Below, piece after piece: positions 7,204 to 48,094 of a stretch of 64,000 nucleotides of DNA. Both the position numbers and the translations under genes were made by a program. The first letter of the stretch is position 1; the number at the start of each line of letters is the position of its first letter. Under the pieces are notes generated by a model. It was given only the letters and a program-made list of their open reading frames with translations. It made no database searches and had not been told where the DNA came from. This DNA is from Candidatus Micrarchaeota archaeon (GTDB taxonomy: Archaea > Micrarchaeota > Micrarchaeia > Anstonellales > Bilamarchaeaceae), in the NCBI GenBank assembly GCA_038046805.1, contig JBBSVO010000006.1, positions 172,976 through 236,975 on the forward strand, given 5' to 3'.

Positions 7204-7467
7204 GTGAATTGCATATATTTTTATACTTTATTCTACCAAAGTATACTCATGTATACTACCATAAAAATTGCAGAAGAGCTTAAGGAAAAACTAAGCAATA
7301 TGCGGACATATGAAAGCGAGACATATGCTGAGATCATAGAAGACCTTATTGAAGACCGTCTTTCTCTCAACCCATCCTTCGTAAAAGAAATCGAAGAACG
7401 AAGAAGAGAGTACAAATCCGGAAAAACCATTTCTTTCGAAGATCTGAAAAAAGAGATGAAACGATAA
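7204..7467 (+). CDS. putative antitoxin (partner of RelE/ParE toxin)
   Basis: 87-aa acidic protein immediately upstream of, and overlapping, the toxin gene. Confidence 0.45.
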   Translation: MNCIYFYTLFYQSILMYTTIKIAEELKEKLSNMRTYESETYAEIIEDLIEDRLSLNPSFVKEIEERRREYKSGKTISFEDLKKEMKR

Positions 7468-7718: not shown

Positions 7719-8426
7719 TTTCGCAATCCCCAGACACTCCTCCTTAGTCAATGTGCGGACGCGCCGTTTTGCAAACTCTTCCGGTGCGACAATTCCTGCG
7801 TGTGCATGCGCCAGAGCATTGCGCACGGACTGGTTTTTATGCTGGAAAAGAATTCGGATTATTTCCTCATCGTGTTTTGTGATTTTTGTTCCGCTCGGAA
7901 CTAAAGTAATCATTTCCGAATCCACTTTCGGTGCAGGAGAAAACAAATGCCTCGGAACTTTCTGGACAAGTTCAACATCAAACGCGAGTTGTGCGGTTAC
8001 CGACAGGCGGCCATAATTCGAATCGTTCGGCTTTGCAACCATTTTCTCAGCGAATTCCTTCTGGATAATAAGAACCGCGCGTTCGAAATCATAATCCTTC
8101 AAACGAAATATTATCGCGGATGAAATGTAATAAGGAATATTACCCATAATTATGTCTGCGTGGATTGGTTCAATCTCCAGAAAATCATCAGTGATAACGT
8201 CCACGTGCGGATTCCCATTAAATTTATCTTTCAATCCGCTTGCGAGTTCCTTGTCCTTCTCAATCGCGAGCACTTTAAGCGCACCGCCTTCTATTATCTT
8301 CTCGGTAAGCCGCCCGTCCCCTGCGCCAATCTCAAGCACAGTCTTGCCAACAACATCCGCAACCAAAACCTCCTTGCGTAAAATGTTCGCATCGCAGAGG
8401 AAGTTCTGACCCATTCGTGCCTTCAC
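7710..8426 (-). CDS. rsmA: 16S rRNA (adenine1518/1519-N6)-dimethyltransferase KsgA/Dim1
   Basis: GQNFL…VLEIGAGDGRLT…NIPYYISS motifs. Confidence 0.85.
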   Translation of the reverse strand: MKARMGQNFLCDANILRKEVLVADVVGKTVLEIGAGDGRLTEKIIEGGALKVLAIEKDKELASGLKDKFNGNPHVDVITDDFLEIEPIHADIIMGNIPYYISSAIIFRLKDYDFERAVLIIQKEFAEKMVAKPNDSNYGRLSVTAQLAFDVELVQKVPRHLFSPAPKVDSEMITLVPSGTKITKHDEEIIRILFQHKNQSVRNALAHAHAGIVAPEEFAKRRVRTLTKEECLGIAKSR

Positions 8427-8665
8427 TTATTCCCCTCCATAATCAGTATTCCGTCAATTATTCCATAGGCATAATTCGCTGCCCCGAACGCGGTAAAATA
8501 ATCCTTTTTCTCAAAATAGTGCTTAGCGTCCTTGTAGTAATTCTCAGCCCACTCATGGACCGAAGGGTATTTCTCTGCCAGTCCGAGCTTCTTGAATTCT
8601 GAAAGTATCTCTTTTAGTTTCTCAATATCTTTGTGCGTTCTTTCACGTTCGTCCATCAAAGCCAT
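8423..8665 (-). CDS. DUF357-family small protein
   Basis: 80 aa. The conserved archaeal gene neighbour upstream of ksgA. Confidence 0.55.
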   Translation of the reverse strand: MALMDERERTHKDIEKLKEILSEFKKLGLAEKYPSVHEWAENYYKDAKHYFEKKDYFTAFGAANYAYGIIDGILIMEGNK

Positions 8666-8728
8666 ACATTTAATAACCTTACAAGAGAATATAAACTTAC
8701 TTTTTGTTTGATTACAACAGTGATACTA

Positions 8729-10694: not shown

Positions 10695-10712
10695 TGATTC
10701 AACTGCCTTGGG

Positions 10713-11522
10713 CTATGGGCCTTGAGCAATGAGCCCTGTGCTCTGGGCCACCTCATTTAGAATCAGCAACGTACCCACTATCGCGAGCAATGCCGCCATC
10801 ATTGTCCTTTGTTTTTTTTCGTCTATCCTGGCAGAGTGTCCGGCGCCAATCCATGCCCCGGTCATTGCACCAACCAGCACTACCCCCGCCACGCTGAGAT
10901 TTACATTCCCAAGCGCGTAATGCGTCATTGAGCTGGGTATTGCGTATATCGCAATCATCATCAGGGATGTGGGAACCGCTTTTTTGATTGAAATCCCCCG
11001 CATTTTCGTCAGAAGCGGGACAAGAAGTGCACCCCCGCCTATCCCGAAGAATCCAGATGCGAATCCTGCAGATGCACCGATCGCAGTTGTATTGATTATT
11101 TTTTTATTCAATTCTCCTTCTGCACTTTCTGTATCTCCCATCGTCTCGGTGTTTTTTTCTCTTTCCAAAAATGTCATTGCCGCAAGCACAAGGATAAGGA
11201 TTCCCAGAAGTGCCATAAGCCAGCTTCCGGCGATATACTGCGTGAGCATTGCGCCGATGATTGAGAACACAATGCCGGCAATCCCGCCAATCAGAGCGGT
11301 TTTGTATTTTATCAGCCCCTGTTTGGAAAACTGAAGCGCTCCGGCAATAGCGGTTGGTATCGTCAGTGTAATTGCAGTACCAACTGCCTCGGTTCCAGAG
11401 AACCCAAGGAGAATCCGGAAAACAGGTATTGCTACAATTGCCCCGCCTATTCCGAACAGCGATGCAAGAACGCCTATGAGAATTCCTGCAACGAATAGTA
11501 ATGCTATCAGCATGATTTCCAT
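10713..11522 (-). CDS. sulfite exporter TauE/SafE family membrane protein
   Basis: Two-repeat hydrophobic architecture with GIGGG motifs. Confidence 0.7.
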   Translation of the reverse strand: MEIMLIALLFVAGILIGVLASLFGIGGAIVAIPVFRILLGFSGTEAVGTAITLTIPTAIAGALQFSKQGLIKYKTALIGGIAGIVFSIIGAMLTQYIAGSWLMALLGILILVLAAMTFLEREKNTETMGDTESAEGELNKKIINTTAIGASAGFASGFFGIGGGALLVPLLTKMRGISIKKAVPTSLMMIAIYAIPSSMTHYALGNVNLSVAGVVLVGAMTGAWIGAGHSARIDEKKQRTMMAALLAIVGTLLILNEVAQSTGLIAQGP

Positions 11523-18737: not shown

Positions 18738-18870
18738 AGCCCCGTCGTCTAGAGTGTCCCGTGTCTTGAGTCCAGCGTCCAGAATACGGAACGTTAAACG
18801 GGAGACAGACTTTGGTCAAGGATAGTGGACTTTGGATCCATTGACACCGGTTCGAATCCGGCCGGGGCTA
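18738..18870 (+). tRNA. tRNA-Gln(UUG) with ~59-nt D-loop intron
   Basis: 7-bp acceptor AGCCCCG/CGGGGCT, T-arm ACCGG-TTCGAAT-CCGGC, anticodon arm GTGGA-CTTTGGA-TCCAT. An extra ~59 nt lies between D-stem halves GTCT…GGAT. Confidence 0.55.
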
Positions 18871-18912
18871 TATAATTTTTTTCAGTTTCCGGTCTCGGGT
18901 CTCGAGTTCCGG

Positions 18913-19005
18913 TTATATTTTTGGGCCCGTGGTCGATACGTTTGCAAAAACGCGACAGCGGTAAGACGCTACTCTCACACAGTAGAGACACGGGGTTCAA
19001 TTCCT
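18913..19005 (+). tRNA. tRNA-Val(CAC) with short D-loop intron
   Basis: Acceptor GGGCCCG/CGGGCCC+A, T-arm CGGGG-TTCAATT-CCTCG, anticodon arm CTACT-CTCACAC-AGTAG. ~18 extra nt sit in the D region. Confidence 0.5.
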
Positions 19006-19126
19006 CGCGGGCCCAATTTTTCCTTTGTATTGCGTTTAGTGTCTTTGGTTTTAACTCTTGAAAAATTGGGAAGAAGTAAAATTTCAGCAGAAATTTTATA
19101 ACAGCTCATTTTTCTATTTATCTGCT

Positions 19127-22611: not shown

Positions 22612-22848
22612 GTGAATACCATGGTAAATGTAACAATTGCAGTCCCAGAGGAATTGAAGAAGCTGTTAGATGCCCATGCCGAAATAAATTGGAGCGAAGT
22701 TGCCAGGCAGGCATGGTGGAAGAAGGCAAGAGAGCTGGAACTTCTGAACAAATTAACCAGGGAAACCAATGCCAGCGATAAAGACGTGCTCGCACTTGCA
22801 AAATTGATAAAAAAAGGAATCGCAGACTGGCATGGTGCACAGATGTAA
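22612..22848 (+). CDS. putative antitoxin (VapB-like)
   Basis: 78-aa protein immediately upstream of the PIN gene. Confidence 0.4.
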   Translation: MNTMVNVTIAVPEELKKLLDAHAEINWSEVARQAWWKKARELELLNKLTRETNASDKDVLALAKLIKKGIADWHGAQM

Positions 22849-22862
22849 TCTCAGGTATTTTC

Positions 22863-31170: not shown

Positions 31171-31511
31171 AATATTTTTGTTCCTACAACTGCTTCTTTT
31201 TCAGGCATCAGCAAGGCAGTTCCGTGTTTTTCAGTCCTGGCTCCTAAAACAAGCACTTCTGAAATTGCATTTGCGATCTGTTTTGGAGGAAAATTAATAA
31301 CACAGATAACCCGTCGTCCCATTAATTCCTCTTTTGAGTAATTCGTTGCCTGTGCACATGATTTTTTTATTCCAATCTCAGATCCAAAATCTATCTTTAG
31401 TCTATAGCTTGGTTTTTTTGCTTCTTGAAAATCTTCTATTTCGATTATTTTTCCAACCCTGATTTCTACTTTTTCAAAATCGTTCCAGGTTATCTGTTCT
31501 ATCTTTTCCAT
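31167..31511 (-). CDS. tRNA-binding protein (Trbp111/CsaA/EMAP-II-like OB domain)
   Basis: KIDFGSEIGIKKSCAQ…RRVICVINFPPKQIANAISEVLVLG is characteristic. 4-nt overlap with the downstream Cys-rich N-module gene. Confidence 0.7.
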   Translation of the reverse strand: MEKIEQITWNDFEKVEIRVGKIIEIEDFQEAKKPSYRLKIDFGSEIGIKKSCAQATNYSKEELMGRRVICVINFPPKQIANAISEVLVLGARTEKHGTALLMPEKEAVVGTKIF

Positions 31512-31771
31512 ACTCTATCACGTCCATTTTACTTATTTTAACTTTTCATAAAAAAAATCCTACAAAATTAGAAAGATTTATATACTTTATAGTATTATGT
31601 TGAAATGGAAAGGCAAGGAGCCGAGGTCCTCCCAAAGGAAATTCATCTCCCCCTCGGCGACCTTCCTCCCCAAGTTGCGTTTCCAGTTTTGAGTTTCGCG
31701 TCTCGCGTAACGATGCGGGATACAAAACGCTAAACGCAAGACCCAAGACGCTGGGTCCAAGACAATAGTGC

Positions 31772-32782
31772 GTGGCGACCAAGATGCAGAAAGAAGGCGA
31801 AGATGGACCAGTAAAGTTGGATAGGTTGGACTACCAAATCCTCTATGAGTTGGACTGCGACGGGTTCCAATCATTGTCAAAAATCGGAAAGAAGCTGCGC
31901 GCAGGCAGGGACGTGATGCATTACCGCGTAAAACGTCTTGAAGAACTCGGAATAATAAAAAAATACGTTCCGATTATTGATTACGGAAAGATGGGTTACA
32001 CAGCCGGTGCAGTGTATATCAAATTCCATCACGACACTCCCGAGCTTCGGGCGGAAATCATAGAATACTACAAAAACAATAACGATGTCTGGTGGCTTTT
32101 CGACATGACGCCGAACTTTGATATTGCGTTCGGATGGTTTGGCAAGAGTCTCGCGGAACTCACCGACAAACGAATCGAGCTGCTCCGCAAATACAGAAAA
32201 TATTTCCGGGAATTTAAATTCCGCATTTACAACTGCCATCATCATTTCAAAAGGGATTATCTGATGCAGCCGCAAGGCAGGCGGGACGCCCGCACTTTGC
32301 CATCGGTTGTCGTTTCCGCAGGAACCGAAAAAATCACGGACGAAACTGATGATAAAATCCTGAAAATCCTTTCCGAAAACGCGCGGCTCCCATACACGGA
32401 AATCGCAAATAAGCTAGAACTCTCCGCAGCACAAGTTCATTATCGCATCCAGAATCTAAAATCAAAAAAAATCCTGCTGGGTGCAAAACCAATGCTTGAT
32501 TTGCAAAAACTGGGGCACGGGCTTTTCAAACTGGACATTTACCTGGATGATTATTCAATCTACGAAGACCTGAGAAAATTCGTTTTCTCGCTTCCAAATG
32601 CCGTCTATGCTTATGACGTAATAGGAGGCGCAGATATAGAGCTTGATTTTGAAGTCAAAAATTTCCCAGAACTTTCGCAGATTCAGGACATCATCAAATC
32701 AAAATTCGGAAAGTCAATCAGCCATATGGAATATTATCATTTCCCGAAAGAGTATAAGCTGGGCTATTTCCCGGGGATATAA
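31772..32782 (+). CDS. tandem (duplicated) Lrp/AsnC-family transcriptional regulator
   Basis: Two HTH_AsnC modules (LDYQILYELDCDG… and DKILKILSENARLPYTEIANKL…). Confidence 0.7.
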   Translation: MATKMQKEGEDGPVKLDRLDYQILYELDCDGFQSLSKIGKKLRAGRDVMHYRVKRLEELGIIKKYVPIIDYGKMGYTAGAVYIKFHHDTPELRAEIIEYYKNNNDVWWLFDMTPNFDIAFGWFGKSLAELTDKRIELLRKYRKYFREFKFRIYNCHHHFKRDYLMQPQGRRDARTLPSVVVSAGTEKITDETDDKILKILSENARLPYTEIANKLELSAAQVHYRIQNLKSKKILLGAKPMLDLQKLGHGLFKLDIYLDDYSIYEDLRKFVFSLPNAVYAYDVIGGADIELDFEVKNFPELSQIQDIIKSKFGKSISHMEYYHFPKEYKLGYFPGI

Positions 32783-36212: not shown

Positions 36213-36324
36213 TCTGGTTTAGTATATCCGCAATCCGAAACGCGGAACAACAAACGCAAAGTCCAAGCCCCTAGACTCTAAATCCCTTTTAAATTCTACG
36301 TCTTCTAATTCATCACTGATATTT

Positions 36325-37317: not shown

Positions 37318-37542
37318 CTTTTTATAAACCACTGTTTATAATACCACAGAACCTTTTTAAATGTTGTGTTGAACACTCTCTCTAATCCCGTTAGAAGTTA
37401 TTCTCTAGCGGAACCGAGAGGGATCTTTCCTTTCGGGTATGGGGCCTGTGGCGGGAAAAAACCTAGGATCCCGTCGCGAAAAACCGCCGTTAAAAATTTT
37501 AATTCGGCTCCACAAAGGCGGTTAAAAAATTGAGGTGAAAGA
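37318..37542 (+). promoter_or_regulatory. TATA-like box (TTTTTATAAA) and long GC-rich structured leader upstream of S-layer gene
   Basis: Inverted repeats (GGATC…GATCC; AACCGCC…GGCGGTT). ORF 37398..37838 (-) here is judged spurious. Confidence 0.3.
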
Positions 37543-40385: not shown

Positions 40386-40546
40386 GTGACGCGTAAGTAA
40401 GCCGGGGAATACAGAACCATCTAAGTGAGATATCGTTTTTGGATATCGAAACCAGAAACTGCGTTGAATCAAGGCTCATTGCCCACAGCTCAAGGCTCAC
40501 GGCAATCCAACCACTTATATAAACCTCACGTGCCTAGTTCTTCCTT

Positions 40547-41338: not shown

Positions 41339-41434
41339 ACGCTAGACGCAAGACTCAGGACTCAAGACCCAAGACTCCAGACACATACCCCGAGACCCCC
41401 TCTATTTTTATTTTTTGCCGCATTTATCCCGCGT

Positions 41435-42772
41435 ATGTGTGCCCGGTTTGTCCAGAAAATGAGCTATAAGTACGAATTTTCAGAGGGCGAACTGAAGCCA
41501 CTTGTTGATATTCAGACAATGCTTGAGGATGACGATCCGTTGCAGCAGTTCTCTAAATTCATGGAAAAAGTAGAACCGCCAGCCAAAGAAGCGAAGAAAG
41601 ACATTTCGGTTGCTATCGCAGAAGTACAGGATGATGTTGCATCACACTCTGATTCGTCATTAACAAGCATGCAGGGAGCGACCGAAAGAGAGGACGTTCA
41701 ATCCTCCCACTACGTCATCACGTTCTTCAATCCAGAAACAGGAAAGGCAGAGGTTCTCGGTGTTTCCTCGGAAATCCGGGTTAAGGATTATGCAAAGAAA
41801 GTGATAGAAGAATCTCTAGGCCAGCAATCAACATTGCCATTATATACGTTTATAGCAACTCCCATCATTCGCAAGGAAGTCAATCCATATCTTCTTGAAG
41901 ACCTCATTAACAATATGGAATATGGTACCCCGCCCCCATTTGGCGGTTCGGTAAAAATTTCAACCGAAAAATCTGCCGCAATATTGCGTGAAAAAGCAGC
42001 TTCGGTAAAACAGAGCGAAATCGTGGCGGTATCCAGGCTGGAACAAAGACAAAAAAATAAACGCGCAGATGAAATTCAAGAGCCCGTCATTGTGGCGACA
42101 TCCGAAGTCAAGAAAGAAAAACCCTCCAATTTGAGTGCGGAACACTATAACAAAGCGCTTCGCGCGGATCAACACGACAAAGCGCTTCGCGCGAAACACA
42201 ACGAACCAGAACAATTCGGGACAAAGCAGTTAATCGAACCTGTTCCGATAGATATCGAGCATGTTCCAATAAACGCAGGTCGTTCTATCAAATCATCTGC
42301 TCATAGTTCTGAAATAGTTTCAGCTACTCAAAATACAAAACTAGTCAAAGCATCCGAGCAATTACCGCATTCTGTTTCCGTTTCTCAGAAAAAGGAAAAA
42401 ACATATGTGCCTGCCATTAAGTCCGAAGTCGTGCTTGAACCTTCTGTTAAACATGCAATAGAAGAAAGCATTGTCAGGAAAGAACGTGCAGAGACGGATA
42501 TTGGTCAAGAAATTGTTTCAATCGAGCGGGTTGTGGTGTCAATTCGCGATAGGCATATCCCGCTGGAAAAGGCAATCCTTGCCCTCCCCCCAATAACCAG
42601 GGCACGCTTCAGTGCAGTTGTAAAAAAGAAGCACCTTCCTGCATCAATGATTCTCTCTCTTTTGGAAAAGGACATCTCTTTCCTAAAATCAGTCAAAAAG
42701 AAGCTTGCAACGCTTTCGTTTGATGACCTGCTTTCCGTGGTTCGCGCAGTTAAATCTCTTTCTGCGAAATAG
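41435..42772 (+). CDS. hypothetical protein with short internal tandem repeat (KALRADQHDKALRAKH)
   Basis: ORF plus a nucleotide repeat caaagcgcttcgcgcg occurring twice. Confidence 0.35.
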   Translation: MCARFVQKMSYKYEFSEGELKPLVDIQTMLEDDDPLQQFSKFMEKVEPPAKEAKKDISVAIAEVQDDVASHSDSSLTSMQGATEREDVQSSHYVITFFNPETGKAEVLGVSSEIRVKDYAKKVIEESLGQQSTLPLYTFIATPIIRKEVNPYLLEDLINNMEYGTPPPFGGSVKISTEKSAAILREKAASVKQSEIVAVSRLEQRQKNKRADEIQEPVIVATSEVKKEKPSNLSAEHYNKALRADQHDKALRAKHNEPEQFGTKQLIEPVPIDIEHVPINAGRSIKSSAHSSEIVSATQNTKLVKASEQLPHSVSVSQKKEKTYVPAIKSEVVLEPSVKHAIEESIVRKERAETDIGQEIVSIERVVVSIRDRHIPLEKAILALPPITRARFSAVVKKKHLPASMILSLLEKDISFLKSVKKKLATLSFDDLLSVVRAVKSLSAK

Positions 42773-42825
42773 CCATGAGCCTTGGGCCATGAGCCTCGGA
42801 TGTATTTTGAATAAAAATAAAAAAA

Positions 42826-43056
42826 AGCCTCAAGAGAGATTTGAACTCCCGACCTCCTCCTTTCTACACCCAATCTCCCCGTAAGAGGGGGTTTGGGCGG
42901 CATGAAAGGCACTAAGGGGGACGCTTCCCCCTTTGGGCCTTCTACAAGAGAGGCGCTCTACATCCAGAAGTCTTGCGTTTCGTATTCCGTGTTTTGAGCC
43001 GGATAAGACTCAGGACAATAGGACAAAACCCAAAACTTTCACTGAGCTATTGAGGC
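42826..43056 (-). tRNA. tRNA-Thr(UGU) with two introns (D-loop ~80 nt; canonical 37/38 ~85 nt), 231 nt total
   Basis: Acceptor GCCTCAA/TTGAGGC, TA-GCTC…GAGC D-stem, anticodon arm CCTCT-CTTGTA[intron]A-GGAGG, variable AGGTC, T-arm GGGAG-TTCAAAT-CTCTC. Confidence 0.5.
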
Positions 43057-43323: not shown

Positions 43324-43608
43324 ATGAACATTGGAGATCTTAAGGCAGGTTCAAAGGAAGTTTCGATAGACGCAGAAGTTGTTAGCATAGATTCTGTACG
43401 GGAAATCAACAAATACGGAAGAACCCTTCGTGTTGCGAATGCAAAAATCGAAGACAAGAGCGGTTCAATAACGTTGGTTTTGTGGAATGACGACATAGAC
43501 AAGGTCAAGGAAGGTTCGAAGATAAAAATCGAAAATGGCTATGTTAACGAATGGCAGAACAACCTGCAGCTAACAAGGGGAAAATTCGGAACGCTTACTG
43601 TTTCATAA
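43324..43608 (+). CDS. OB-fold nucleic-acid-binding protein (short RPA/SSB-like)
   Basis: 94 aa. GSITLVLWNDD…IKIENGYVNEWQN is a typical single OB fold. Confidence 0.5.
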   Translation: MNIGDLKAGSKEVSIDAEVVSIDSVREINKYGRTLRVANAKIEDKSGSITLVLWNDDIDKVKEGSKIKIENGYVNEWQNNLQLTRGKFGTLTVS

Positions 43609-44325: not shown

Positions 44326-44817
44326 CTACACAACCCTTAAGATTAGTCTTTTCTTCACGTAATTGAGTACCTTTTCGTAATTGATATAATGCGAATATGC
44401 GGTTAATTCCATAGGGTAATTCCCATCTCTTGTCTGGTTGCTTCCCCAGATAGGGATAACCAATTCTACGGAAACCCCTGCCTTTATTTCTCCAAGTCTT
44501 TTTTCCATATGCTTGTTTATGCAGGTTGGTTCAAATCCAATCATTTCCTTTTTTGGAAGTAGGATATCTACAGATACCAGTTGCAGTTCATTCGTAGTAT
44601 TCGTCAATTTGACGATCATCCTCACCATGTTATCCTTTCTTGCAGACAATCTTACTGGAACAAAAGAAGTAACTACGTTGAATGGGGCATTGGATTGTTG
44701 TACCTCTGTCCGAACTTCTTTGCGTTCACTAGAACTTCCCATCAATGAATCTAAAAATCCCATTTTGTCACCTTTTACATCTATTATAATTCGTTGCCTT
44801 TTCTGACGTATATGCAA
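44326..44817 (-). CDS. hypothetical protein co-oriented with pilin genes
   Basis: ORF only. Confidence 0.3.
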   Translation of the reverse strand: MHIRQKRQRIIIDVKGDKMGFLDSLMGSSSERKEVRTEVQQSNAPFNVVTSFVPVRLSARKDNMVRMIVKLTNTTNELQLVSVDILLPKKEMIGFEPTCINKHMEKRLGEIKAGVSVELVIPIWGSNQTRDGNYPMELTAYSHYINYEKVLNYVKKRLILRVV

Positions 44818-44959
44818 ATGGACAGAAACCTTTAAATATAGTTAGTAATAAAGGAAATTTGCTAATAAGAAAGACATTCATTTCACGCTCTTTCTTTGTA
44901 TGGGAGGATAACTGGTCGCCTTGCCAGCGCATAATTGCGCTGGCCTCTTTCTATTTGAA

Positions 44960-45204
44960 GCTTTTTGGATAAGGAGTTATAAGGGCAAAAACCTTCAGGA
45001 AAAACCATGGAGGTTTACGGAATCCTCCCATGCAGGGATTTTAAAAAACAATTGAGCCTTTTTGGCTTAGGGGTTATCAGGGCAAAAACACGTCCGGTTG
45101 AACGGCGATCCGTTCAATGGACCATTGAAACCACCTTGTTTCAATAGGTCGCGAAAAACCATGGAGAAGCCAATAGTTTCGGCGCAATACTCCCATGCAA
45201 AGGA
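44960..45204. repeat. two imperfect direct repeat units (~80 nt and ~150 nt; the second carries a ~63-nt insertion with the palindrome TTGAACGG-CGAT-CCGTTCAA at 45098..45117)
   Basis: gctttttggataaggagttataagggcaaaaac…aaaaaccatggag…ctcccatgcaggga versus gcctttttggcttaggggttatcagggcaaaaac…[insert]…aaaaaccatggag…ctcccatgcaaagga. Confidence 0.45.
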
Positions 45205-45365
45205 TGTTAAACTTCTTCTTGCAGTCCACATGTTTTTAACAATAGCGGAACAAATTTTCAATTATGTCCGAAGCACCATTAGTTGAAATAGACGCGTCAA
45301 AGGGAGAAGGCGGTTTGTTTGAACGACGAATCGTCCAAAGCCCGCCTTCCCAAAAAGGCAATTGC

Positions 45366-46376: not shown

Positions 46377-47816
46377 TTATTTGGTCGTCTCTGCTTTATT
46401 TAGTATTTCCTCCATATTTTTCTTGTCATCCTCGCTTATGTTCTGCCCGGTGGTGTTCTCCTTTGTAGGATTTTCGAACGGTTCATCACTTTGTTTTATC
46501 GTAGTCTTGTTTGTGGTGGCAAACTCCTCGCACATCGCAACCTTGGTGGAGTTCATTATACTGCTGCATATACTGGCGTTTTTCATTGTTCCGCCAAGTT
46601 CAATGTAACAATCGTCTTTTATGCCAGATTCGGTTACGAGTTTGCATATTCCAGTGTCTTTAGCCATTATTGCTAAATTGAGAATGCAGATATTCTTTCT
46701 TCCACCGGCAAATTCGCACAGTTCAAGGTTTTCTTTGTCCAATGCCATAGAATAAACGCATTTATCATGTTCTATTCCCTCTTTTTCAAGGCATGCTATA
46801 AACGCATTCTGGTCATCGCTTGCAGCCTGAAGCAGGGTGACGGCCTTTCCGGCAGTCAGGTTCTCCGGAACTATTATCTCCTTATCATATTTCCAATCGG
46901 ATGAAACAAGATTCCATTTACTCGTGCGATCCTTTCCAAGATAATTATATGCGAATTCCTTAGAGATAATTTCGTTCTTTTCTTCGTTATAACATAGTTT
47001 ACTTTCGTATCTCTTTGGATCTCCCTGTCTTACATTAAGGCTCATCGCCTCGCTTAAAGTAAGGTTTGAATAGTCTATAACAAAGTTTACTTCCGAGCAT
47101 TTTTCTCCTTTTTCCGTGGTTTCAATAACCTCCTCAAACGTAATGGTGTTTTTTCCCTTCAGGAATTCAAATGTTTCCTTTGCAGAATCTATCTTTTCGT
47201 TGCTGAAAAATTGCCCTCCAATCACCTTTAAGTATTTCGAGAGGGCTGCACTGGTGTTTTTTACAGAACTGCAGGCATATTCATCTTCATATTCTACACA
47301 CATTACCGTGTCGTTTTCCGCAAAATAAATATTTCTTTCAGATATTGGAGTTTCTATAGTTACCTGGCGCACTGCTCCGTTCTTGCGAAGTGTTGTCCTC
47401 ATGACATATTCATCAAGCGTTTCGTCATAGGCATATTCGTAATCTGTTGCGCCCTGGCCAACAAGAAGGCTTTTTTCATATATTTCAAGCGCATTGCCTG
47501 TGCTATCTTCTCCTTCACCACCGTGTTTTTGAAGGTTCGGAAGTGCATACATATAAACCGCATAACCTGCGGCAAGGAAAACGATAATCCCTAAAACCAC
47601 CAGCAAAATATTTTTTACATCTGTCATAAGATAACCTCTGAACATTGGCTTTTTATATTTCTCATCTGTGCTTAAAAAGTTATTGCAGGGGACAGGATTT
47701 TCAATTACCACGGGAGTATCACGCCTACGTTTTTCTTTTGGCGTGTCAGGAACGACCGACAAAACGACGCTTCGTTTTGTGGTCCATAAAACGTTACGAC
47801 GTTTTATCGGACGCAT
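46377..47816 (-). CDS. membrane-anchored extracellular hypothetical protein (Cys-rich C-terminal region)
   Basis: TM anchor ILLVVLGIIVFLAAGYAVYMY. The true start is probably the internal M (MTDVKN…). Confidence 0.4.
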   Translation of the reverse strand: MRPIKRRNVLWTTKRSVVLSVVPDTPKEKRRRDTPVVIENPVPCNNFLSTDEKYKKPMFRGYLMTDVKNILLVVLGIIVFLAAGYAVYMYALPNLQKHGGEGEDSTGNALEIYEKSLLVGQGATDYEYAYDETLDEYVMRTTLRKNGAVRQVTIETPISERNIYFAENDTVMCVEYEDEYACSSVKNTSAALSKYLKVIGGQFFSNEKIDSAKETFEFLKGKNTITFEEVIETTEKGEKCSEVNFVIDYSNLTLSEAMSLNVRQGDPKRYESKLCYNEEKNEIISKEFAYNYLGKDRTSKWNLVSSDWKYDKEIIVPENLTAGKAVTLLQAASDDQNAFIACLEKEGIEHDKCVYSMALDKENLELCEFAGGRKNICILNLAIMAKDTGICKLVTESGIKDDCYIELGGTMKNASICSSIMNSTKVAMCEEFATTNKTTIKQSDEPFENPTKENTTGQNISEDDKKNMEEILNKAETTK

Positions 47817-48094
47817 CGTTCCTGAGCATGTTCAAGAACGAAATGTCGTTCTTGACATGAAACCCTCAGACCTTTTCTTTTTTAAAAGAAAAGGGGTATG
47901 GGTTTGAACCTGTGAAGACGCTAGGTCATCAGATTTCCTATCCCGCATTCGGGAAAAGAACAAACGAGATCTTGAGTCTGACGCGTTTGACCGTTGCGAA
48001 ACCAGTTTCCAGTTGCCTGTTTCCAGTTCCCAAAACGCGAAACTGAAAACCCTAGACAGAAAACTGACTTCTCCGCCACCCCTGCGCATTATAT

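Follow-up and report, generated by a model that had tools for sequence, protein, structure and literature searches.

The leader of the Lrp/AsnC-like gene

The DNA analysed here is a 64 kb stretch (hereafter the window) of a groundwater Micrarchaeota genome, with a GC content of about 42–45% and about 12% of non-coding sequence; the homologues of its proteins carry the names Candidatus Micrarchaeota or Micrarchaeia. An Lrp/AsnC-like gene starts on its plus strand with an ATG at 31784, and the leader of this gene contains the element with which we are concerned, an insertion of about 105 nt (31672–31776, plus strand) made up of a heptamer hairpin plus a heptamer array. The sequence on its 5′ side (31560–31671, plus strand) comprises a promoter (TCCTACAAAATTAGAAAGATTTATATA) and a structured leader core (GGCAAGGAGCCG...CGGCGACCTTCCTCCC), both of which stand out as conserved in alignments with the relatives L013, L145, L146 and L011. 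The element is inserted 3′ of this core, and GGCGACCA (31777–31783) directly precedes the ATG.

The antisense arm of the element (31674–31708) is a succession of the units GTTGCGT, TTCCAGT, TTTGAGT, TTCGCGT and CTCGCGT. It is followed by a loop and then by the sense arm, or array (31724–31763), which begins with AAACGCT, AAACGCA, AGACCCA and AGACGCT. The hairpin has a minimum free energy (MFE) z-score of −3.8, and a heptamer profile, built from the arrays and run over the window with nhmmer, matches the element with E-values of 3e-5 and 8e-4. By eye, the arm ends TTGCGTTT and AAACGCAA flank the hairpin at 31674–31738; a clean duplication was not found.

The syntenic loci of relatives were obtained via homologues of the Lrp-like protein and of a Zn-ribbon protein that is also encoded in the window. 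The promoter and the order of leader core, GGCGACCA and ATG are kept in L145 (whose Lrp-like protein is 83% identical), L146, L011 and L013/L148. What varies is the interval between CCTTCCTCCC and GGCGACCA, which is occupied by 9 nt (ATAAATAAT) in L145, by about 25 nt in L011 and by the element of about 105 nt in the window. The element is missing from the orthologous leaders of L145, L146 and L011, and the shorter array of the L013 leader is shared by L148. The conserved flanks and the 9 nt of L145 thus place the element within the 5′ leader and indicate that it was recently gained (or lost elsewhere). Judged from this position within a conserved leader, the copy at 31672–31776 is transcribed.

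The leader itself also deserves mention, with its conserved structure, its variable apical loop, its GGCGACC motif occurring twice and its CCUCC-like stretches, features that suggest an undescribed leader or attenuator RNA. It has no match in Rfam (none at E ≤ 1 in 31500–31800).

A degenerate tandem heptamer

The original prediction held that the D-loop introns of three tRNA genes (Gln, Thr and a presumed Ile) share sequence blocks with each other and with intergenic segments, among them the one upstream of the Lrp gene. The strings that it quoted are where it placed them, GTCTTGAGTC and GAATACGGAACG in the Gln insert and GTCCTGAGTC and GAATACGAAACG in the Thr insert. The likeness of the Lrp-upstream segment to the Gln intron is also borne out: ACGCTAAACGCAAGACCCAAGAC is located at 31726–31749, and the loop and the start of the sense arm agree by eye with the Gln intron at about 21 of 26 positions (CAGAATACGGAACGTTAAACGGGAGAC versus CGGGATACAAAACGCTAAACGCAAGAC). 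Furthermore, a 23-mer, ACGCTARACGCAAGACNCARGAC, is common to 31726–31748 and to an array starting at 41339, and the antisense arm has TTTTSAGTTTCGCGT in common with the intron of a tRNA-Leu gene; both of these shared sequences fit copying between loci.

The shared blocks are degenerate tandem heptamers with the consensus ARACNCR and the core RRAC (GTYY in the antisense direction). The logo of the unit in the heptamer profile reads A (0.77) or G, A or G, A, C, N, C (0.69) or G, and G or A. A variant unit, which we call type 2 (RRGC), has G in place of the invariant A, as in GCTCAAG and GCCCAAG.

The period of seven is specific. We counted runs of at least four RRAC units at a fixed spacing across 14 Micrarchaeota sequences, which together amount to 290 kb, and found 21 at period 7 (six in the window, three in L002, two in L008, nine in L015 and one in L016) and none at spacings of 5, 6, 8, 9 or 10. 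Likewise, 38 windows of a self-similarity scan show at least 70% self-match at period 7, compared with 0–5 at each of the other periods between 4 and 12, and Tandem Repeats Finder reports period 7 at 41339–41382 and 48002–48032. Among 576 degenerate 4-mers, RRAC/GTYY comes first once A/T-rich low-complexity motifs are set aside, and the period-7 behaviour is limited to this motif and its looser or overlapping variants MRAC, WRAC and ACYS.

An all-versus-all alignment had been proposed as a check of the shared sequence. In pairwise local alignments, each scored against 200 dinucleotide shuffles, several pairs are well above the shuffles, up to z = 10.7 for the intergenic segments around 31 and 41 kb (IG31 and IG41), the pair that contains the 23-mer. 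The Thr intron against the reverse complement of IG41 gives 8.1, the Gln intron against the same reverse complement 6.2, the Leu intron against IG31 5–5.8 and the Gln and Thr introns 4.7. Other pairs stay at the level of the shuffles (Gln–Leu at z = 0.5, Thr–Leu at z = 1.4 and the segment IG36 against most others). The similarity between elements exists because they are period-7 tandem repeats. Within the window the heptamer profile has nine matches at E < 0.01, eight of which lie in the non-coding 12%, and all three long D-loop introns (Gln, Thr and Leu) are matched; there are about 12 arrays in the 64 kb. The existence of a family of related elements common to tRNA introns, intergenic segments and a leader, as first proposed, is therefore supported by the period-7 scans, the alignment z-scores and the profile matches alike.

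It might be objected that AT-rich or low-complexity intergenic DNA resembles itself by chance, and the pairs that do not rise above the shuffles (Gln–Leu, IG36) would agree with this. However, the enrichment is specific to period 7, with no runs at other periods, the z-scores reach 10.7 and the same arrays occur in genomes of 37–57% GC, which refutes this objection and leaves it with a probability that we regard as negligible.

Heptamer hairpins in tRNA genes

In the raw window ARAGORN finds no tRNA and Rfam no tRNA or other non-coding RNA (ncRNA), either at the gathering threshold or at E ≤ 10 over the whole window. Four tRNA genes, Gln(TTG), Val(CAC), Thr(TGT) and Leu(CAA), are called by ARAGORN only once their inserts are deleted in silico. 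Since the standard finders and Rfam miss all four, the number of tRNA genes reported for such DPANN genomes is probably too low. A search for the T-arm motif was also tried as a tRNA finder and abandoned, its matches being mostly false positives in coding DNA.

The tRNA-Gln(TTG) gene (18738–18870, plus strand) has a D-loop intron at about 18753–18812, which consists of four antisense heptamers (GTCCCGT, GTCTTGA, GTCCAGC and GTCCAGA), an ATAC loop and the sense units ACGTTAA, ACGGGAG and ACAGAC. Lying 52 nt to its 3′ side, the tRNA-Val(CAC) gene (18923–19015, plus strand) contains a D-loop intron of 21 nt (TACGTTTGCAAAAACGCGACA, about 18937–18957). On the minus strand, the tRNA-Thr(TGT) gene (42826–43056) has two introns: the one in the D-loop (43040–42967) is composed of heptamers, and the one in the anticodon loop (42942–42862) is GC-rich and without heptamers. 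The fold of tRNA-Thr has a z-score of −5.2. We also observed that a gene for a 94-residue OB-fold protein (Ssb-like/tRNA_anti-codon; 43324–43608) stands beside tRNA-Thr in all of the relatives examined (9033–9317 in L002 and 15117–15401 in L008).

The third long D-loop intron had been assigned to a tRNA-Ile. This assignment proved mistaken, the CTGATGA read as Ile being the 3′ anticodon stem and variable region of tRNA-Leu, as ARAGORN indicates after splicing. The tRNA-Leu(CAA) gene (47684–48085, minus strand) contains three introns, in the D-loop (48067–47993), the anticodon arm (47969–47934) and the T-loop (47902–47698, 205 nt); its 3′ exon (47684–47697) was located by comparison with the intact orthologue in L002. 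The D-loop intron has a heptamer 5′ arm (48064–48029) and a 3′ arm (48028–48002). Of the predicted sharing of blocks among the three introns, the Gln–Thr part holds; the Leu intron is without the quoted blocks, yet it is built from the same heptamers. The T-loop intron is multi-hairpin and absent from the L002 orthologue. A long open reading frame (ORF; 46377–47816) overlaps it, the true start of which is probably the ATG near 47626.

The long D-loop introns of tRNA-Gln, tRNA-Thr and tRNA-Leu(CAA) have a common architecture: an antisense array, a loop that often contains ATAC and a sense array, which together form an imperfect hairpin. The insertion in the Lrp leader is built in the same way. 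Most of the hairpins are more stable on one strand than on the other, namely on the transcribed one wherever this is known, with two exceptions among 11. The MFE values for the two strands are −26.9 versus −19.0 kcal/mol for the Thr intron, −27.8 versus −14.7 kcal/mol for the Leu intron, −36.9 (plus strand) versus −30.4 kcal/mol for IG31 and −82.1 versus −62.2 kcal/mol for an L015 hairpin upstream of tRNase Z. Such an asymmetry between G·U and A·C pairs is the expected signature of pairing at the RNA level. A G-quadruplex or telomere-like reading of GGGTTTY arms was considered and set aside, as it fits the high-GC relative L015 only and not the window.

Micrarchaeota (ARMAN-2) are known to have multiple non-canonical tRNA introns, and their ε2 endonuclease cuts relaxed bulge–helix–bulge (BHB) motifs (PMC3239211), so that the presence of such introns is in itself no novelty. 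In the MFE fold of the Gln precursor, the GUCU of the D-stem pairs with the AGAC that ends the intron, giving a helix of 4 bp with bulges of 3 nt on both sides, and in that of Thr a 5′ bulge of 3 nt lies next to the exon helix. These predicted folds fit BHB-type splicing without proving it. The idea that the heptamers are duplicated BHB half-sites was rejected, because the exon D-stem plus bulge, GUCUAGA, is out of phase with the heptamers of the intron (an offset of 9, not 7).

The introns had also been proposed to carry a guide-RNA element such as box C/D. Seven introns and three intergenic elements contain no RUGAUGA box (searched as RTGATGA or TGATG), and neither a K-turn nor an Rfam match at E ≤ 1–10 was found, which speaks against this proposal. 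The intron of archaeal pre-tRNA-Trp encodes a box C/D sRNA. The heptamer introns resemble it in that a tRNA intron carries a module also found standing alone, and differ from it in having no C/D boxes, K-turn or Rfam match.

Arrays outside tRNA genes

Three arrays run in one direction, without a partner arm. The longest, at 41339–41399 (plus strand), consists of eight or nine sense heptamers (ACGCTAG, ACGCAAG, ACTCAGG, ACTCAAG, ACCCAAG, ACTCCAG and so on) with an RRAC run of seven; the stop codon of the Zn-ribbon gene immediately precedes it, and a T-rich terminator and the next promoter follow. A second array lies in the Gln–Val spacer (18885–18912) with RRAC on the minus strand (AACTCGAGACCCGAGACCGGAAAC), an RRAC run of four and an nhmmer E-value of 1e-4. 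The third (36235–36276, plus strand; CCGAAAC, GCGGAAC, AACAAAC, GCAAAGT and so on) lies upstream of the tRNase Z promoter. It corresponds to the weaker relative that had been noted at 36245–36290, and weak it is when taken alone (nhmmer E = 5.4); its kinship gains support from an array at the same position in four of nine other lineages.

Type-2 arrays occur at three places. The first (40466–40508, plus strand; AATCAAG, GCTCATT, GCCCACA, GCTCAAG and GCTCACG) reaches up to the TATA box that precedes the Zn-ribbon gene; it resembles the other two (z = 5–6). Of these, one is found at a convergent gene junction (10705–10749, minus strand), where it covers the last 12 or so codons of the ORF 10713–11522, and the other lies between the stop codon of the ORF 41435–42772 and the 3′ end of tRNA-Thr (42773–42799, minus strand). 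Type 2 appears again in the distant relative L013. The ORF 41435–42772 contains a tandem duplication of 27 nt in two copies (42150–42204, ACAAAGCGCTTCGCGCGAAACAAAACG), which encodes a repeated KALRA motif.

One may wonder whether the excised and possibly circular introns act in trans, pairing through their GU-rich arm with sense arrays in the untranslated regions (UTRs) of other genes. The original prediction had noted that 41339–41395 shares sequence with the antisense of the Thr intron, and indeed AAGACTCAGGAC (41350–41361) is the exact complement of 43007–43018. Exact complementarity of 11–12 nt links the Thr intron (GUCCUGAGUCUU) to 41350–41361 and the Gln intron (GUCUUGAGUCC) to 41358–41368, with z = 6–8. 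However, complementarity follows automatically from membership of a common repeat family, the antisense arms are already paired inside their own hairpins and the specific intron–target pairs are not conserved in relatives. We consider trans-acting antisense RNAs very unlikely.

The positions of several arrays bring to mind operators or centromere-like sites at the DNA level, on whose contiguous 7 bp boxes a ribbon–helix–helix or similar protein would polymerize and so regulate the adjacent promoters. At three genes, namely tRNase Z (in several lineages), the Zn-ribbon gene and the gene at 41459, arrays end 0–25 bp upstream of the BRE/TATA box. Two small unannotated ORFs of the window (7240–7466 and 22620–22850) look by eye like ribbon–helix–helix (CopG/antitoxin-like) proteins and might encode binders of short tandem DNA boxes. 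MetJ, for example, binds tandem metboxes, which are units of 8 bp. The ω (ParB) protein of pSM19035 recognizes heptad arrays of at least four contiguous 7 bp units, direct or inverted (PMC9499535), and the grammar of our arrays is the same as that of pSM19035 parS, with four or more contiguous units, both direct and inverted, that are often placed immediately before a promoter. The likeness ends there, as the unit sequence and the domain of life are different, the heptamers occur also in transcribed RNA genes and leaders and no cognate protein is identified. Arrays moreover lie within tRNA genes, in a 5′ leader, in tRNA spacers and at the convergent junction 10705–10749, the G·U/A·C asymmetry of the hairpins is unexpected for DNA sites and the arrays are patchy among close relatives. 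On balance, we judge a DNA-level operator improbable.

Distribution and turnover among relatives

Heptamer arrays are found in Micrarchaeota lineages spanning 37–57% GC (L002–L005, L008/L014, L013, L015 and L016), and no RRAC run of at least four units was found in the loci of L006, L011, L012, L017–L021 and L145–L149. L145, the relative with the 83% identical Lrp-like protein, has no arrays in 7.6 kb.

Arrays are gained, lost and resized between relatives. After the Zn-ribbon gene there are eight units in the window and about four in L002/L005. Upstream of the same gene, the window has a type-2 array and L002/L005 a type-1 array, while the flanks and the TATA box are conserved. The Leu D-loop intron has both arms in the window and the antisense arm alone in L002. 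These differences between close relatives in presence, size and type (Lrp leader, Zn-ribbon arrays, Leu sense arm) are consistent with the mobility that had been suggested for the elements.

The tRNA-Thr gene allows a wider comparison, with orthologues in L002, L005, L006, L008, L013, L015 and L016. Its D-loop intron is present at one site in seven lineages with quite different contents, and heptamers fill it only in the window, in L002 (with its near-identical sister contigs) and partly in L006. This bears on the earlier suggestion that the elements are intron-derived: with such different fillers in orthologous introns, the heptamers look as if they had colonized the introns, not given rise to them. 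Nor is the repeat tied to the D-loop, since in the tRNA-Thr gene of L008 it is the introns of the anticodon loop and the T-loop that are filled with heptamer hairpins.

One position recurs over greater distances. In five of ten lineages (the window, L002, L008, L013 and L015, and not L006, L011, L012, L016 or L145), the tRNase Z promoter is closely preceded by an array, always with RRAC on the sense strand of the gene; it should be noted that this positional conservation was at first seen in five of five lineages and became five of ten as more lineages were included. In two lineages, an array directly adjoins the TATA box of the Zn-ribbon gene.

This recurrence, together with the strictness of the core, raises the possibility that the arrays are maintained as an RNA-level platform, in which a lineage-specific RNA-binding protein would read the RRAC units, set 7 nt apart, in the introns of pre-tRNAs, in tRNA spacers and in mRNA leaders or UTRs, for instance to chaperone or mark pre-tRNAs and to exert feedback on genes for tRNA processing, tRNase Z being one example. 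In the logo, RRAC stays strictly conserved while the other three positions drift, the two unit variants are conserved across distant lineages, the arrays adjoin or sit within tRNA genes and the strand asymmetry of the hairpins fits RNA. In form, the pattern of NAG plus a 4 nt spacer is also like the RNA sites of HutP-type proteins. On the other hand, most of the tRNase Z and Zn-ribbon arrays are upstream of the TATA box and so probably outside these mRNAs, the nearest relative has no arrays, orthologous introns manage without heptamers and no candidate protein is identified. We hold the RNA platform to be possible but unlikely.

The repeat may extend beyond the Micrarchaeota. Contigs of JGI metagenomes were scanned for the exact 23-mer, for which less than one chance match is expected, and three of the loci found are not Micrarchaeota-like (L022, L023 and L024). 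Hairpins of the units GACGCTA, AACGCAA and GACGCAA occur at L022 6470–6550, L023 465–620 and L024 3037–3068; the first is a sense-then-antisense hairpin between the V-ATPase B and D genes of the Thermaceae bacterium contig JADEYI010000913.1. Degenerate RRAC arrays were also seen in some phage-like contigs, but the scan of viral contigs for seven RRACNNN units yielded mainly perfect tandem repeats and the telomere-like AAACCCT and has little value for the distribution.

Other features of the window

A second repeated element was observed, the twin-hairpin element, which is about 56–60 nt long and is organized as GTCCG, hairpin 1, TGGACCA, hairpin 2 and CGGTCG, with conserved junctions and covarying stems and without an Rfam match. 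Copies lie at 45092–45151 (plus strand) and 47812–47753 (minus strand) in the window, at about 8625–8680 (minus strand) in L002 and at about 7811–7870 (plus strand) in L015. It is found within the Leu T-loop intron in the window and within the Thr D-loop intron in L002, and is intergenic elsewhere. Being intronic in one genome and intergenic in others, it is a second element with the same behaviour as the heptamers.

Two further non-coding regions may be mentioned. A gene-free region of 500 nt (44764–45263) contains three pairs of direct repeats (CTTTTTGGMTWAGGRGTTATMAGGGCAAAAAC, AAAAACCATGGAG and CTCCCATGCA, each present twice) and several hairpins; Rfam gives no match at E ≤ 1 in 44700–45300, and the region probably corresponds to one or more ncRNA genes. 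Between a promoter-like TATA box and the start of the S-layer gene (37543) lies a long, GC-rich and structured region (37370–37542), a probable structured 5′ UTR.

A mobile hairpin repeat excised from tRNA genes as an intron?

The explanation that we favour, and to which we give an even chance, is a non-autonomous hairpin repeat family comparable to the repetitive extragenic palindromic (REP) sequences and miniature inverted-repeat transposable elements (MITEs), which copies itself into permissive non-coding sites, is resized by slippage and, where it lies in a tRNA gene, is spliced out as a BHB intron. The insertion in the Lrp leader would be one member of a dispersed ARACNCR family present in several Micrarchaeota lineages, whose antisense array followed by a sense array would form a long imperfect RNA hairpin. 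Copies would be pasted into the D-, anticodon- and T-loops of tRNA genes, into variable loops of mRNA leaders and into spacers, and would afterwards gain or lose units and diverge through slippage. Within tRNA genes, the base of the element together with exon nucleotides would form a (relaxed) BHB motif, from which a splicing endonuclease of broad specificity would excise the intron; the element would be tolerated there because the relaxed BHB lets the endonuclease remove it. Outside tRNA genes, it would persist, either in the form of a hairpin that is transcribed or as an array running in one direction. Putative parts of this scheme are the copy-and-paste mobility, the splicing by EndA and a role for the RRAC core as the recognition site of a mobilizing or binding protein.

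REP sequences, bacterial interspersed mosaic elements (BIMEs) and MITEs are short hairpin repeats (30–160 nt) confined to non-coding DNA, variable between strains, transcribed when in UTRs and endowed with a short, strictly conserved core. The heptamer family is likewise short, hairpin-forming, non-coding and variable, with a conserved core, and it differs between orthologous sites in presence or absence (the Lrp leader insertion) and in the size and type of its arrays. It departs from these repeats in that its arms are tandem heptamers and not a unique palindrome, in its one-directional arrays and in its service as tRNA introns.

Several points weigh against the repeat-family explanation. A terminal inverted repeat with a target-site duplication could not be made out. 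The elements are not linked to any transposase or RAYT-like gene, although no candidate was looked at and only 64 kb of the genome was covered; the census comprises these 64 kb plus about 25 loci. Splicing and BHB geometry are predicted solely from MFE folds. Finally, the conservation of the RRAC core across lineages with 37–57% GC, the side-by-side presence of the RRAC and RRGC variants in distant lineages and the recurrence of arrays upstream of tRNase Z in a constant orientation are not obviously expected of a purely selfish element and point to sequence-specific recognition, possibly to a function. The strictness of RRAC and the co-existence of the two unit variants suggest that the recognition is by a protein. 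A protein-binding role is therefore the main rival of the repeat-family explanation and is also compatible with it, since RRAC may be the site of a mobilizing or a binding factor.

The closest precedent comes from the Thermoproteales, in which similar introns at different tRNA positions have been read as intron transposition (Fujishima et al., 2010, as summarized in PMC4090602), implying intron gain at the DNA level. Both features have a counterpart here: introns of different isoacceptors are similar (Gln–Thr, z = 4.7), though through a repeat and not from end to end, and related introns occupy different positions (the anticodon loop and T-loop in L008, the D-loop in the window). Unlike the whole-intron homology of the Thermoproteales, the shared sequence in these DPANN archaea is a 7 nt repeat, copies of which also lie in leaders and intergenic DNA as a possible source pool. 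Within the same phylum, ARMAN-2 genes have one to three introns in the D-loop, the anticodon arm and the T-loop (59/60-like), with relaxed bulge–helix motifs predicted at the junctions (PMC3239211). That paper is concerned with intron positions and the enzyme, and neither a heptamer composition nor copies outside tRNA genes are mentioned in it. A literature search by keyword and by repeat sequence retrieved no published description of heptamer-built tRNA introns or of such arrays in DPANN archaea, and the family appears to be undescribed as well as fast-changing.

The heptamer repeat is thus met in three settings: tRNA introns at several positions, a recent insertion in an mRNA leader and free intergenic copies. 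It hints at how archaeal tRNA genes gain introns, the source of the non-canonical introns being an open question in the field, and its gain, loss and change of size between close relatives make intron gain directly testable. In a bolder and more doubtful version of the proposal, which we put forward tentatively, archaeal tRNA introns would descend from the heptamer hairpins as their mobile precursors: RRAC would be recognized by a dedicated protein, which would move or copy the hairpin, and a landing where a BHB forms would produce an instantly spliceable intron. If this were true, it would provide a concrete mechanism for ‘intron transposition’ and a new REP-like class of elements, possibly shared with bacteria and phages. 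The strict periodicity of RRAC, for its part, points to a sequence-specific protein that merits a search.

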